Shown here piece by piece: positions 3,245 through 52,241 of a DNA stretch of 64,000 nucleotides. Numbering within the stretch: position 1 is the first letter of the stretch; every line of letters starts with the position of its first letter. The notes under the pieces were generated by a model. That model was not told where the DNA came from. It did no database searches and saw only the letters and a program-made list of their open reading frames with translations. Both the position numbers and the translations under genes were made by a program. The stretch is from a virus: the IMG/VR virus record IMGVR_UViG_3300028840_002524, positions 32,001 to 96,000 of that record. One strand, written 5' to 3'.

Positions 3245-4369
3245 GTGTCGATTGTTCTCGTGGTCAAAAATGAGGGCACAGAAGACGTTCTCATCGAGGA
3301 CCTCGGGTTCACTATTTCCGGAGAATCCCAGGAGCAGGTGAATGACCTGTTCGACATCCGGAGCTTTCTTCTCTCGGAGAATTTGCGGCAGTTTGCGCTG
3401 GCGGGAACGCTCAAGCTCAACGACGGGACATCCGACATCCCCGTTTCCGAGGTGGACGATTTCATTCAGTACCACAACACGGGCCCTGATCAGGCCCATG
3501 AGGTGGCGGTAGACGCAACCGAGTTCAGCGGCCATCTTGGAACCGGGGACAGCGACGTACAGGCGGCCCTGCGAACCCTCGATCAGCTCCCGATCTCCGG
3601 TGTGACGGGCCCCACGGGTCCGGACGTGCACAATGATCTCACCGGCCGAGACACCTACCCGGCCCACCCGGATAGCGCCCTCAGCCGTTCCGTGCAGAAC
3701 AAGTCCGACAATTACACAATGGTCCTGTCGGATTTCGGAACCACCCTGCGGTTCACGAACTCCACCCAGAAAACGCTCACCCTCTACTCCCTTTCGGGAA
3801 CCGAGACCGGGCGCGAGGTGGAGGTGATCCGGACAGGGACGGGGAGTCTCCTCCTGGCAGTCCCCTCGGGATATACGCTGTACTTCCTCGGCGTGCAGTA
3901 CACGGGGGCCGCGACGGTCGAGATCAACGAGCAATGGAGGCGCATTCAGCTTCGGGCGATCTCGGCGACGGAATGGGAGGCGAGCCTCGACGCCTTGGCG
4001 TTCAACGAGTGGAGCTCTGAGGTGTCCGATGACGGCGAGTCCACCACCACATCACAGACGTTGCAGACGAAGCTATCCCACACGACAGAGGAACTCCCGG
4101 CTGGAAAATACAGGGTGGGATATGGGTGTGAGTACGGGAATAACATCCAGAAAGCCACCGAGGTCACCGTCGAGGTCGAGGGTTCCACCGTCGCGCTCGT
4201 GCAATCGTCTGTCACCGAGGGGGATTACTGGAATCCGTTCGCAGGATTTTATTACTACGACCTTGCAGCCGACGGAACCATCACCGTTGATCTCAAATAT
4301 AGGAACCTTGACACCGGCGGAACCGCGAGGATTCGCTGCGCACGGATTGAGGTATGGAGGGTGGAGTAG
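3245..4369 (+). CDS. virion fibre protein sharing the N-terminal domain of the collagen protein
   Basis: LVVKNEG...IEDLGFTI...GTLKLNDGT...FIQYHNTG aligns with LVIKNGG...IPDLGFAI...GTLELNNGT...FMQYHDTG; 'DVQAALRTL' and 'HNDLTGRD' fibre motifs. Confidence 0.7.
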   Translation: MSIVLVVKNEGTEDVLIEDLGFTISGESQEQVNDLFDIRSFLLSENLRQFALAGTLKLNDGTSDIPVSEVDDFIQYHNTGPDQAHEVAVDATEFSGHLGTGDSDVQAALRTLDQLPISGVTGPTGPDVHNDLTGRDTYPAHPDSALSRSVQNKSDNYTMVLSDFGTTLRFTNSTQKTLTLYSLSGTETGREVEVIRTGTGSLLLAVPSGYTLYFLGVQYTGAATVEINEQWRRIQLRAISATEWEASLDALAFNEWSSEVSDDGESTTTSQTLQTKLSHTTEELPAGKYRVGYGCEYGNNIQKATEVTVEVEGSTVALVQSSVTEGDYWNPFAGFYYYDLAADGTITVDLKYRNLDTGGTARIRCARIEVWRVE

Positions 4370-43488: not shown

Positions 43489-43510
43489 CACAAGTTTGGA
43501 GGACACAGGT

Positions 43511-44407
43511 ATGGGATTCGCAACACGCGGGATGGGGGAGGCGAACAACGTCCCTTCCTCATCGAGGGTCAAGCCGCAGTTCGAAAAGCGTCTCTTCCTT
43601 CGCCCTGGGGATGAGATGGACATCGTTCTGCTGGACGACAATTCATTCAACATCTGGGAACACGGGATGTTCCTCAAGGGCGACAAGCAGGCGTCCAAGA
43701 TCAAGGTCACCTGCCCCGACGGCACGGCCGACGGCGACCCCAAGGAGTGCCGAATCTGCAACGCCATGATTCGCCACGACCTCATCGGCCGCAACTGGAG
43801 AGGGTTCCTCACCGTCGTGGACCTGTCCAAGCGCACCTGGAGAGGCAAGACGTACGTTGACGTGAAGAAGCTTCTCCCGCTGGACAAAAAGACGGCCATG
43901 ATCCTGGAGCGCAAGCGGGACAAGCGCGGATCCCTGGTGGGGGCGCAGATGCACCTCTACCGCACGGACGGGAACTCCAGCTCCGTGGGCGACGACTGGG
44001 AGCTCGTGGACATCGAGGACCCCAAGAAGCGGTTCAAGAACTCCCCCCAGATCGAGCGTACCATCGACTGGGCCAAGAAGAAGGACGGCACGATCCTGAC
44101 GCGCAGTCAGGCCCTCGCCGTGTTCTGCTCCCCTTACGACTACAACGAGGTTCTCGCCCCCGATGCCAAGAAGGTCCGGTACTTCCTGGCCTACATGGGA
44201 ATCGACGATAGCGTCCAGGGCGGCGAGGAGGAGCGCGAGGAGGAGAACAACACCGTCGAGTACGGCAATCCCGAAACGCCCCCGGACGATGGAGTCGAGG
44301 AGGGGGGAGAAGAACGCCAGCGGGCGCCTGCCAAGAAAGCCGGGAAGAAAAAGGGTGTCAAGAAGAAGGGCGTCAAGAAGAAGGGTGTCAAGAAAAAGGG
44401 ACGCTGA
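43511..44407 (+). CDS. single-stranded DNA-binding protein (gp32-like, Zn-binding)
   Basis: GGAGG RBS; 'LFLRPGD', 'EH', 'CP...CRIC'; acidic C-terminal region then KKGV tail; between primase and polymerase. Confidence 0.7.
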   Translation: MGFATRGMGEANNVPSSSRVKPQFEKRLFLRPGDEMDIVLLDDNSFNIWEHGMFLKGDKQASKIKVTCPDGTADGDPKECRICNAMIRHDLIGRNWRGFLTVVDLSKRTWRGKTYVDVKKLLPLDKKTAMILERKRDKRGSLVGAQMHLYRTDGNSSSVGDDWELVDIEDPKKRFKNSPQIERTIDWAKKKDGTILTRSQALAVFCSPYDYNEVLAPDAKKVRYFLAYMGIDDSVQGGEEEREEENNTVEYGNPETPPDDGVEEGGEERQRAPAKKAGKKKGVKKKGVKKKGVKKKGR

Positions 44408-44415
44408 TCAACGCT

Positions 44416-44439
44416 GCGGTCCCCCTCACGGGGGGCCGC
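44416..44439 (+). other. GC-rich hairpin between SSB and tRNA-like RNA
   Basis: GCGGTCCCC-CTCACG-GGGGGCCGC inverted repeat, no U tract. Confidence 0.5.
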
Positions 44440-44443
44440 GTAG

Positions 44444-44579
44444 CGCCCGGTAGCTCAGCGGAAGAGCACCCTCTCGCCTTGGACGATGCGCCGTACTTGG
44501 CGGGGCAGCCGTGGAGGTCGTGCACACCGAAGCGGTCGAGCGAGGTCGGTCAGGGGTTCGAATCCTCTCCGGGCGTCCA
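44444..44579 (+). ncRNA. tRNA-like RNA with expanded anticodon arm
   Basis: Acceptor CGCCCGG/CCGGGCG-T-CCA; T8A9; D arm GCTC-AGCGGAA-GAGC; T arm AGGGG-TTCGAAT-CCTCT; ~68 nt instead of a 7-nt anticodon loop. Confidence 0.85.
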
Positions 44580-44580
44580 G

Positions 44581-46791
44581 ATGGACGATATAGCAGAGAA
44601 AATCCTGAGTTCGCCGTGGGTCGCGGTCGATACCGAGACCGACGACGATGAGCTCATCCCGGCCTGCAAGAAGTCCCTCTATGGGGTTTCGCTCGCGTGG
44701 GGTAACCCCGAGCACCCTGTCGGGGACTATTGGTCCTTTCAGGAGGACGCGCAGGCGTTCAAGACGTTCAAGAAGCGCATCCTCGGACCGCTCTTCGAGC
44801 GAGAGGATGTGAATCTCGCGTGGTGGAACTACAAGTTTGACGCGCAGGTGCTCGGGGCCCGGGGCCTCCAGGCCAAGGGAAAGATCCACGACGGGATGCT
44901 CCTCTCGTACCTGATCGACGAAAACAACCGGCACGCCCTCAAGGCATGCGCGAAGCGGAGCCTCGGCGTTACCACGGCCCTCACATACAAGGAGTCACAG
45001 CGAGAGATCGAGGCCATCTGGAATCGCGGCCAGAAGGTCATCAAGAAGATGATCGCCACGGCGTGGAACCTCTACAGGGACCACAGAAAGACCTCGCAGG
45101 TGATCGAGGCGTTCGTGGACCCGAAGTGGCCGCTGGCGAAGCGGGCAGCATTCATGCAGCCGCCGGGGCTCAAGAAAGCGGAGGTGACGCCCCTCATAGA
45201 TAAGTTTGTACGGCCGAAGGTCGAGGTGAAAGCCGACATTGATCGGAAGAACCTCTTCGAGACGTACGCCACCCATGACGCGATATGGACCCTCCAGCTC
45301 GTGAACCTGTACCTCAAGGAGGTGGAAGAGCTGGGGCTCCTGGACGTGTTCTTCAACCTCGAAGTGCCCGTCGTGGAGGCCGTCGTTGACATAGAAACCC
45401 GGGGCGTTCGCATGGACGTGGACATCCTCCGGGACCTCAAGCGCATGTACGGCGAGGAGATCGCCAAGATCAGGTCCTCAATCGAGAAGGAATGGGGCGA
45501 ATGGTTCAACCCCGGCTCCCCTGATCAGCTCCGTCAGATTTTCTGGGGGTACTACGGTATCGAGCCCCCAGATTGGGCGATCAACAAGAAGAACAAGAAG
45601 AAGGGGAACACGGACCCCATCAAATACGCCTCGACGGACAAGCGGGTCCTCGAATGGCTCGAAGAGAACCACGACATCCCGCTCATCGGACAGGTGACCC
45701 GGCTTCGGAAGCTGGAGAAGATCAAAGGCACGTACATCGACAACCTCCTGGAGCGGGCCGAGGCCGACGGAGAGCACCGTATCCACTGCTCGTTCAACCC
45801 GACCGGAACGGTCAATGATCGGTGGTCCTCGAACAACCCGAACCTCCAGAACCAACCCCGGCCGGGAACGACCGAGGGCGTGATCAGCACGGTTTTCGAT
45901 CCGCAGACAGGAGAGGAGAGAAAGGTCCCGACGATCCGCCGGGCCTACATCCCGAGGGACGGGTACAAGTTCATCAATGCCGATTTCTCCCAGATCGAGC
46001 TCCGCTTCCTGGCCCACATCACGCAGGACCCGGCGCTCCTCAAGGCGTACCGGACATGGATGTGCCACACGTGCGGCGCCGAGGGGGAGACGGATATATC
46101 CATGCACCACTGCCCACACTGTTGGGCGGATGAGGTGGAGGCCAAGGGCCACGAGTCCATCGAAGAGGGCTTTGTCCTGGGCGAGGACATCCATTGGCTC
46201 ACCGCCGTGGCGACTGGACTCGTGGACACCTACGGCCCTGTGGAGGGGCGCTACAAAGCGAAAAACGTCAATTTCGGACTGATCTACGGGATGTTCCCGA
46301 AGCTCCTCGCGTCCATGATCGGGGTGTCCAAGGAAGAGGCCGAAGAGGTTCACGCGAGGTTCTTCCTCAAGTACCAGAAGGTGCGCAATTTCCACCACTG
46401 GGTGCGCAACACGCTGGACGACGAGGGCCGCTTCAAACTCTATAACGGCCGCTGGCGGAATTTCACCAAGGAGCGCAACCTCTGGCACGCGGGCAGGATG
46501 GAGGAGTGGCTGTGGCACGGGGTCGTGCGAGAGGCCACGAACTCGATCATCCAGGGCGGCGCTGCCCAGCTCATGAAGATGGTGGTGCGCGACCTGAGCC
46601 GGGACTTCCGCACAGGCGACTACGGAGACACCGGAATCGTCCTCCAGGTGCACGACGAAATCCTCGTGGAGTACCCGGAGGAGCGGGAAGAGCAGGTTAA
46701 AAAGCAGATCGTGGAGCGGATGGAGCGCGTAGCGAACATCGGTGTCCCGATCATCACGGACCCGGAGATCAAGACTGCATGGGCAGCGTAA
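44581..46791 (+). CDS. polA: family A DNA polymerase with 3'-5' exonuclease
   Basis: Exo 'DTET', 'NYKFD', 'YATHD'; 'SSNNPNLQN', motif A 'ADFSQIELR', B 'RYKAKNVNFGLIYG', C 'VHDE'. Start ATG 44581, not 44479. Confidence 0.95.
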   Translation: MDDIAEKILSSPWVAVDTETDDDELIPACKKSLYGVSLAWGNPEHPVGDYWSFQEDAQAFKTFKKRILGPLFEREDVNLAWWNYKFDAQVLGARGLQAKGKIHDGMLLSYLIDENNRHALKACAKRSLGVTTALTYKESQREIEAIWNRGQKVIKKMIATAWNLYRDHRKTSQVIEAFVDPKWPLAKRAAFMQPPGLKKAEVTPLIDKFVRPKVEVKADIDRKNLFETYATHDAIWTLQLVNLYLKEVEELGLLDVFFNLEVPVVEAVVDIETRGVRMDVDILRDLKRMYGEEIAKIRSSIEKEWGEWFNPGSPDQLRQIFWGYYGIEPPDWAINKKNKKKGNTDPIKYASTDKRVLEWLEENHDIPLIGQVTRLRKLEKIKGTYIDNLLERAEADGEHRIHCSFNPTGTVNDRWSSNNPNLQNQPRPGTTEGVISTVFDPQTGEERKVPTIRRAYIPRDGYKFINADFSQIELRFLAHITQDPALLKAYRTWMCHTCGAEGETDISMHHCPHCWADEVEAKGHESIEEGFVLGEDIHWLTAVATGLVDTYGPVEGRYKAKNVNFGLIYGMFPKLLASMIGVSKEEAEEVHARFFLKYQKVRNFHHWVRNTLDDEGRFKLYNGRWRNFTKERNLWHAGRMEEWLWHGVVREATNSIIQGGAAQLMKMVVRDLSRDFRTGDYGDTGIVLQVHDEILVEYPEEREEQVKKQIVERMERVANIGVPIITDPEIKTAWAA

Positions 46792-51458: not shown

Positions 51459-52241
51459 ATGAAAGAGATCAGGAAAAAGGAATTCGCCAACGGCTCCGTC
51501 TACGCCCTCGAAACGCACGATGGCTATCCGGTCGAGGTTACTGATACCTTTTTGCCGTTCTACACGAAAGACGCAATCGGCAGGCGGCAAAACGCCCTGA
51601 ACACGCATGATCTTGGCAGCAGGGCGGAGCGATGGATGATAGGCGTTTCTGTGATGAGCGGTTGCCCTGTTGGTTGTCGCTTCTGCGCCACAGGACAACT
51701 ACCGAGGTGGAGGCGACTTGGTGCGGGTGAAATCATAGACCAAATCCGGTTTGTCCTTGAGCGAAGAGATGAACGATTCGAGGACGCGAAGGAATACAAG
51801 ATCAATTATACGAGGATGGGGGAACCATTCTTAAACACCGAACAAGTCAAACTCGCTGTTTTATGGGCAGACCTTGCTACTCCAGGCGTTCACCAGTACA
51901 TCTCAACCATTGGCATTGAAGGATCGGACTTTTCATGGATCAGGAATGACGCAACCCTTCAAATTTCCCTGCATTCATGCGACGAAAAGAAAAGGGACTG
52001 GCTTATCCCATACAAGCGGAAAATGAGCATTGCCGATCTTGGGAAGATTCGAACAGAAAGCAATCTGAAAACCACCTTGAATCTGACTTTGGTGGATGAG
52101 CAGGATTTTGATATTCGTATTCTGAAGGACCATTTTCCAAAAGAAGAATTCTTCGTGAAACTCAGTCCTATAAACCGTAACGCGATCTCTGATTCCCACG
52201 GCCTTGGAGGCGGGGCAATCAGGACCGCAAACCTGATTTAG
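51459..52241 (+). CDS. RlmN/Cfr-like radical SAM protein, lacking N-terminal domain, resolving Cys and C-terminal AACGQL segment
   Basis: 'VSVMSGCPVGCRFCATG', 'R.L.AGEIIDQI', 'MGEPFLN', 'IST.G', 'QISLHS..EKKR.WLIP'. Confidence 0.9.
   Translation: MKEIRKKEFANGSVYALETHDGYPVEVTDTFLPFYTKDAIGRRQNALNTHDLGSRAERWMIGVSVMSGCPVGCRFCATGQLPRWRRLGAGEIIDQIRFVLERRDERFEDAKEYKINYTRMGEPFLNTEQVKLAVLWADLATPGVHQYISTIGIEGSDFSWIRNDATLQISLHSCDEKKRDWLIPYKRKMSIADLGKIRTESNLKTTLNLTLVDEQDFDIRILKDHFPKEEFFVKLSPINRNAISDSHGLGGGAIRTANLI

Follow-up and report, generated by a model that had tools for sequence, protein, structure and literature searches.

The stretch of DNA analysed here (the window, 64,000 nucleotides (nt)) corresponds to positions 32001-96000 of the 116-kb IMG/VR virus record IMGVR_UViG_3300028840_002524 (G000), which is 85% complete. 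Directly before the gene for its family A DNA polymerase (polA), the window contains a small RNA gene having the body of a tRNA with the anticodon loop replaced by a 68-nt insert, and a homologous element was found at the equivalent position, directly before polA, in a second phage genome (G001, locus L001). Judging from the two sequences, this RNA probably does not read codons, and here it is tentatively proposed that tRNA-processing enzymes excise it, so that the polA message keeps almost no leader. The locus includes the following features, given in window coordinates.

43496-44407, plus strand: upstream gene of 303 aa, from the list of open reading frames (ORFs); its Pfam scan was empty.
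44416-44439, plus strand: 10-base-pair (bp) GC-rich hairpin GCGGTCCCCC-TCAC-GGGGGGCCGC, without a U tract, absent in L001 and not called as a terminator.
44444-44579, plus strand: 136-nt gene for a tRNA-framed RNA, its encoded CCA included, from ARAGORN in intron mode and the two-sequence covariance model R1.
44444-44450, plus strand: 5' strand of the acceptor stem, CGCCCGG, pairing with CCGGGCG at 44569-44575 (7/7 Watson-Crick).
44453-44467, plus strand: D arm GCTC-AGCGGAA-GAGC, read from the sequence and identical in the phiC31-family tRNA-like elements.
44469-44473, plus strand: 5' strand of the anticodon stem, CCCTC, pairing with 44542-44546.
44474-44541, plus strand: insert in place of the anticodon loop, exactly 68 nt between the anticodon-stem halves; proposed three-way junction.
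44474-44503, plus strand: helix Pa, UCGCC (44474-78) with GGCGG (44499-503) and a variable tip, kept in both phages.
44499-44511, plus strand: invariant 13-nt core GGCGGGGCAGCCG, 13/13 identical in the two phages.
44508-44536, plus strand: helix Pb, GCCGU (44508-12) with GCGGU (44532-36), inner GGU/ACC and a 7-nt loop CGUGCAC, from the alignment; weak in the window.
44542-44546, plus strand: 3' strand of the anticodon stem, GAGGT, forming four pairs and a C-U mismatch with CCCTC.
44547-44551, plus strand: variable loop CGGTC, 5 nt, read from the sequence.
44552-44568, plus strand: T arm AGGGG-TTCGAAT-CCTCT, read from the sequence; one T-stem pair is changed on both sides in L001.
44569-44579, plus strand: 3' strand of the acceptor stem, discriminator U44576 and encoded CCA (44577-44579), read from the sequence.
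44581-46791, plus strand: polA, 736 aa, with a 3'-5' exonuclease domain (Pfam PF00476, PF01612).

The body has the cloverleaf of a canonical tRNA, including a 7-bp acceptor stem, a D arm and a T arm with the GTTCRANNC loop. U8 and A9 stand directly 3' of the acceptor 5' strand, and G44443 with U44576 could form an extra G-U pair on the acceptor stem. An earlier note on this DNA had described a tRNA-shaped body, an anticodon loop replaced by about 68 nt and a one-base gap to the polA ATG, all of which were borne out by direct reading; its start at 44416, however, took in the 10-bp hairpin at 44416-44439, which is a separate feature outside the tRNA-like RNA.

Default ARAGORN gave no match in the whole 64-kb window, nor did Rfam at gathering thresholds. 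ARAGORN in intron mode, at its default threshold, called exactly one such gene in the 64 kb, a tRNA-Ser(cga) with a 61-nt intron, which is the element. Only chance-level matches to symR, YrlA and RsmY were obtained in a permissive Rfam search of 44350-44650, and in the same interval neither Intron_gpI nor any other ribozyme model matched at E values up to 10. The RF00005 search of G000 had tRNA-Leu as its sole match and did not match the element. Regarding a tmRNA, the ARAGORN tmRNA search was empty, there was no match to an Rfam tmRNA model, and the element is only 136 nt long. The covariance model R1, built from the elements of both phages, scored 154 bits on the window and 138 bits in G001, and at most 61 bits on the 100 loci searched (L187-L286), where ordinary tRNAs score 40-61 bits.

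The gene set of the virus comprises a DnaB-type helicase, RNase H, a DnaG-type primase, PolA, RecA, a family-4/5-type UDG and P2/T4-type baseplate proteins, and its proteome is non-acidic, with a median isoelectric point (pI) of 6.4. Together with a class II tRNA-Leu(TAG) with encoded CCA, these characters point to a bacterial tailed phage. The relatives of the UDG carry names from several phyla, with no single phylum indicated. In a large protein collection PolA has three close relatives, at 72%, 71% and about 48% identity, the first of them belonging to G001, a complete 131-kb phage genome with terminal repeats. A scan of IMG/VR with the core pattern returned 26 stretches, L001 being the only real member, and the same pattern gave 28 chance matches, with no tRNA body, in 185,579 species genomes; a metagenome scan with the PolA alignment found only PolA relatives of at most 32% identity. 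The sequence family therefore consists of two known members, the window phage and L001.

All conservation figures rest on the two-sequence alignment of the window with L001. Standard pairs make up 97% of the cells of the proposed structure. The phages differ on both sides of six pairs that nevertheless remain paired, against 0-2 such double changes in slid controls; the acceptor stem has three of the six, and the anticodon stem, the T stem and helix Pb have one each. The anticodon-stem pair 30:40, for example, is U:A in the window and C:G in L001. Identity amounts to 84% in the D arm, 77% in the variable loop and T arm, 62% in the whole insert, 29% in the insert hairpin tip and 93% around GGCGGGGCAGCCG, the core itself being unchanged, compared with 57% at polA third codon positions. 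The spacing of 43 nt between the core and the T loop has no indels between the phages. Because of the six compensatory pairs and the identical core, the aligned sequences are those of a real element that is under selection and not decaying.

The insert is probably folded as a three-way junction on the anticodon stem. The helices common to both phages are YCGCC/GGCGG (44474-78 with 44499-503) and GCCGK/SCGGY (44508-12 with 44532-36). In L001 the minimum-energy fold, with the tRNA body constrained, is exactly such a junction, in which Pa (CCGCC...GGCGG), tipped by 5 bp, is linked through the 4 nt GGCA to a perfect 12-bp Pb hairpin, with a second joiner of 4-5 nt; the Pa tip still forms a hairpin there. 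RNAalifold recovered Pb and, in a shifted form, Pa. An alternative fold pairs YCGC with the second GCGG, giving one long arm. Two smaller hairpins noticed earlier in the insert, CGCCG-TACT-TGGCG and ACCG-AAG-CGGT, are present in the window and are not kept in L001. A resemblance of GGACGATGCGCCGTAC to the guanidine-III riboswitch was rejected, being neither conserved in L001 nor matched in Rfam.

In place of a 7-nt anticodon loop with U33 and a purine at position 37, the element has the 68-nt insert. For the window and L001, all single excisions were enumerated that would keep five pairs in the stem, U33 and R37 in a loop of 7 nt, and a variable loop of 4-5 nt; there was no solution in either phage. 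In the canonical register both phages read YC-GCC-Y; positions 32-38 of the window are TCGCCTT, with C33, the triplet GCC and U37, just as the earlier note had read them, and position 37 is C in L001. The discriminator is U73 in the window and G73 in L001, and pair 1:72 is C:G in the window and A-C in L001; since both differ, no aminoacylation identity is kept. The previous suggestion that this is not a decoding tRNA is thus supported by the failure of any single excision to restore U33 and R37 together with a 5-bp stem in either phage.

The polA ATG at 44581 lies one base past the CCA and 4 nt past the stable helix, and the alignment of PolA with its relatives begins at residue 1. An N-terminal extension of polA through the element was considered and rejected, since L001 offers no in-frame start upstream that could serve and conservation is lacking. 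No Shine-Dalgarno or GGAGG-like motif was found upstream of this ATG in the window phage, in which GGAGG-like sites occur at about a dozen of the 31 other listed gene starts. The gap between CCA and ATG is 1 nt in the window and 2 nt in L001 (...GCCA-GC-ATG), so that in both phages a tRNA-shaped structure abuts a coding region without a ribosome-binding site of its own. The element stands in a replication module with helicase, RNase H, primase, polA and RecA. No promoter-like or terminator-like site was found on the plus strand from the upstream gene to polA, and co-transcription of the upstream gene with the element and polA is most likely. The upstream gene of the window, which has a KKKGV tail, and that of L001 both have a Lys-rich repeat at their end (window 44300-44407, L001:2790-2856), which reads KKKGVKKKGVKKKGVKKKGR here and KKGLKKGLKKKGK in L001. 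The sole ordinary tRNA of the phage, the class II Leu(TAG) with encoded CCA, lies outside the window (G000:C1:112536-112627), and the ATG that stands 24 nt downstream has its own GGGAGG ribosome-binding site; abutment of a tRNA on a coding region is thus specific to polA in the window genome.

These characters are tentatively best explained by a non-decoding, tRNA-framed RNA that serves as punctuation in the polA message. The upstream gene, the element and polA would be carried in one transcript, in which RNase P would cut the 5' end of the element and the host tRNA 3'-end pathway would cut at or just past the CCA. A stable 136-nt RNA would be released, and the polA message would have its 5' end at, or 1-2 nt before, the AUG and would be translated as a leaderless message. 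The features under compensatory selection are those read by RNase P and 3' tRNA nucleases, namely the acceptor and T helices and the NCCA. The element retains what processing enzymes recognise in a tRNA, including the stacking of the acceptor stem on the T arm and the D arm. RNase E of Escherichia coli reportedly cleaves 1-3 nt past an encoded CCA (PMC2190699), and with a cut of this type the polA mRNA would start at or next to the AUG. A processing signal producing a leaderless polA mRNA, one of the roles proposed in the earlier note, is the most economical reading and fits the 1-2 nt gap and the missing Shine-Dalgarno, while we infer the RNase P and 3'-enzyme cleavages, the co-transcription and the leaderless translation.

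A comparable logic is found in organelles. tRNA punctuation of animal mitochondrial transcripts was reportedly described by Ojala et al. in 1981. In plant mitochondria, t-elements are likewise tRNA-like structures in polycistronic transcripts that abut a coding region, and their processing sets an mRNA end with little or no leader (PMC1920247). Both of these systems are organellar and experimentally mapped, whereas the window element belongs to a bacterial-type phage and is known from sequence; it also has a full cloverleaf body, an encoded CCA and a conserved 68-nt domain, and t-elements are without such a domain.

Several observations weigh against the punctuation of the polA message. A conserved insert of 68 nt is more than processing alone would require. 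In the locus of a PolA relative at 47% identity (L109), a 16-bp terminator-like hairpin and no tRNA-like element was found (2900-2990), and the polA ATG there is also without a Shine-Dalgarno, so the element is not the sole cause of the missing ribosome-binding site. As the UDG relatives indicate no single phylum, efficient leaderless translation in the host is not to be assumed. Among expanded viral tRNA-like genes, 3 of 153 abut an ORF start, against 5 of 138 of normal length, showing no enrichment, and a general rule by which expanded tRNA-likes would abut ORF starts was rejected on this sample. Moreover, the three-way junction of the window lies about 5 kcal/mol above the constrained minimum, in a flat landscape with more than 1000 structures within 3 kcal/mol. 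With two sequences only, the fold of the insert is weakly determined as between the junction and the long arm.

Conservation of the insert hints at another role, in addition to processing or in its place, either in trans or as an operator. It is possible, although doubtful, that the RNA is a tRNA mimic acting in trans, either diverting or inhibiting host defences that target tRNAs (e.g., anticodon nucleases) or forming a scaffold to which a host or phage protein binds through the insert, the adjacency to polA being a matter of tight packing; such a role would be compatible with processing and does not exclude it. The invariant 13-nt core and the kept helices go beyond the needs of a processing signal, and as a guess the core could be a protein-binding site. 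Viral contigs commonly contain tRNA-framed RNAs whose anticodon domain has been replaced, and as a rule these do not abut an ORF. T4 RNAC and RNAD (species 1 and 2) are likewise small non-decoding phage RNAs, stable and made with or alongside tRNAs from the tRNA region, with a role that is not established (PMC3014915); they lie in a tRNA cluster, in contrast to the position of the window element before a DNA polymerase gene. Against a role in trans, no partner was found: G000, at its 85% completeness, has no match to Ro60/TROVE, which control genomes do match, and no RtcB, RNA ligase or CCA-adding gene was found in it. The phage genome has no excess of sites complementary to the core, as would be expected of an antisense target, and the abutment of 1-2 nt to polA is kept in both phages.

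Two known groups of tRNA-like RNAs resemble the element in part. YrlA-type Y RNAs (RF02553) likewise mimic the acceptor, D and T arms, and the YrlA of Mycobacterium smegmatis is a substrate of RNase P and has CCA added to it (PMC4201824). RF02553 scored 14.8 and 12.9 bits on the element, against a gathering threshold of 69; in addition, the two ends of the YrlA RNA lie on the anticodon side, whereas those of the window element lie at the acceptor stem, and the window element is without the GNCGAA motif. The second group was reached through a 25-nt identity to an element in Streptomyces phage Vash, from which relatives were found in phiC31, phiBT1 and others. This phiC31-family element, between gp13 and gp14 of phiC31, phiBT1, Vash, Lilbooboo and others, has a D arm (GCTCAGCGGAAGAGC) and a T loop identical to those of the window element, a perfect acceptor stem and a covarying 4-bp 'anticodon' stem closing a domain that is not an anticodon. 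Its insert of about 24 nt (AAYCCGG, a GNRA-capped hairpin and CAC, from seven aligned Streptomyces phage elements) is not alignable with that of the window, it has no encoded CCA, and the next gene begins about 38 nt further on with its own ribosome-binding site, which agrees with an RNA acting in trans. Default ARAGORN missed the element at the Vash locus, the only locus of the family on which it was run. The phiC31 locus is L339:251-340, equal to phiC31 AJ006589.3 31423-31512, and the others are L338 and L340-L344. The stem covaries among phiC31, phiBT1, Vash, Lilbooboo, RemusLoopin and Heather as CCCC/GGGG, CCGC/GCGG, CCAC/GTGG and TCCC/GGGA. Five of these six records carry no annotation for the element, which is named tRNA-Gly in Lilbooboo, and the looser element of AbbeyMikolon (L344) is annotated as tRNA-OTHER.

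It is unlikely that the element is a cis-acting translational operator, in which the uncut folded RNA would control polA through binding of a replication protein or of the polymerase, in the way that T4 gp43 binds its own mRNA. The AUG 4 nt past a stable helix, the missing Shine-Dalgarno and the location within a replication module would suit this role; a full tRNA body with NCCA and compensatory changes in the acceptor stem exceeds what an operator needs.

Quite unlikely is a real tRNA with a new kind of short intron, spliced to a decoding tRNA, as in the ARAGORN call of Ser(CGA) with a 61-nt intron. If a 4-bp stem is allowed, the window gives the loop UU-CGA-GC of that call, having U33 and G37, and the homologous cut in L001, CC-GGA-GA, gives GGA, also a serine anticodon; many viral tRNA genes with inserts of 40-80 nt do give perfect anticodon arms once these are removed. 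However, L001 has C33 in this cut and no excision there yields U33 with R37, the variable loop, at 5 nt, does not resemble the long variable arm of bacterial tRNA-Ser, and neither the discriminator (U73 against G73) nor pair 1:72 is conserved. Intron-containing tRNAs, with group I or archaeal bulge-helix-bulge introns, likewise have a tRNA body interrupted in the anticodon region. A group I intron was rejected, as the 68-nt insert is too small (the core typically exceeds 200 nt) and the Intron_gpI model did not match. Hand tests for a bulge-helix-bulge were inconsistent: L001 has a CCGC/GCGG helix with a 3-nt AGA bulge and no outer helix, and the window needs a 6-nt bulge or mismatches, with splice products that would have C33. 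These tests, together with the proteome pI and the gene set, also led to rejection of an archaeal host with a bulge-helix-bulge intron; the phage looks bacterial, and G000 has neither an RNA ligase nor RtcB. In a related and very improbable variant, the insert would be a new small intervening RNA, removed by phage or host machinery or by self-processing, to give a serine-anticodon tRNA (CGA/GGA) or a released small RNA; splicing by such a route is not known from bacteria.

A decaying tRNA pseudogene with a functionless junk insertion is very unlikely. The insert identity of 62% is only slightly above that of polA third positions, and the window insert folds no better than shuffles. Against decay stand the compensatory pairs in the acceptor (three), anticodon and T stems (one each), the intact D and T loops, the kept CCA, the invariant core, and a position and length maintained in spite of a PolA identity of 72%. 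The earlier note had named a decaying tRNA with an unconserved insert as what would speak against its view; what was found instead were compensatory changes in body and insert helices. RlmN enzymes methylate A37 of some tRNAs, and a split RlmN/Cfr-like radical-SAM gene lies 7 kb away in the same genome (window 51459-52241), but that the element is the dedicated substrate of this enzyme, as once suggested, is scarcely credible, since the complete G001 keeps the element without any homologue of the gene (the query matching G000 as control), which is an accessory gene of the window lineage on which the element does not depend.

Pattern scans of IMG/VR found well over 100 tRNA genes in which 6-7 of the 7 acceptor pairs form and 30-90 additional nt separate the D arm from the T arm. 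Of the 63 candidates from the first scan, about one in two yields a canonical anticodon arm when a single segment is excised; the others, like the window element, do not. No homology of the window insert was found to the GC-rich expanded tRNA-likes L198, L194, L221, L255 and L268, whose inserts are skipped by model R1. Another set of GC-rich tRNA-likes (L477:1718, L479, L449:11620, L467, L471) has the acceptor stem extended by eight pairs (CCATCATC with GATGATGG), an 'anticodon' hairpin capped by a triloop, and an insertion of about 49 nt that separates the variable loop from the T stem, and shares a GGGGTCGCGCCC motif with the L001 hairpin loops; its reading as a discriminator followed by an ATG was rejected, the sequence in question being part of this long extended stem.

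Mostly AT-rich viral tRNA genes were also found having an insert of 43-69 nt after the second base of the anticodon stem (position 28/29), in L196 (minus strand, reverse-complement position 4351), L202, L214:1499, L215, L222, L232, L234, L235:12977, L237, L249, L264, L270, L284 and L306. They form a perfect 5-bp stem and a canonical loop (GTT, TTT, TGT, GCT, CCT) only after removal of the insert, and many of the inserts end in ...GTTACTTC or contain ACAGCAA; we know of no intron class at position 28/29 in phages. In L223:3501-3635, L226 and L296 the anticodon region holds an apparent second, circularly permuted tRNA, with the T arm before the D arm. Additionally, a recurrent type of viral tRNA, in L377:1281, L414, L410, L418, L387, L399, L345, L366, L383, L352 and L430, has an anticodon loop YTTATAN (TAT) and a long variable arm with a CCAGATWAG loop, which is unusual for an isoleucine-type anticodon (TAT type).

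The literature searched contained no paper on the window element or on short inserts in phage tRNAs. The kind of RNA is not in itself novel, and few of its published examples have a role assigned to them; neither Rfam nor the literature searched has a counterpart to the family of the window element, its insert or its position before polA. Gene finders and Rfam miss such RNAs, and viral contigs, even phiC31, hold many tRNA-framed RNAs with a replaced anticodon domain. If the element is indeed processed as proposed, a tRNA-shaped RNA would act as the punctuation that frees the message of a phage DNA polymerase, and the output of a replication enzyme would be tied to the tRNA-maturation enzymes of the host, a mitochondrion-like logic in a bacterial virus.

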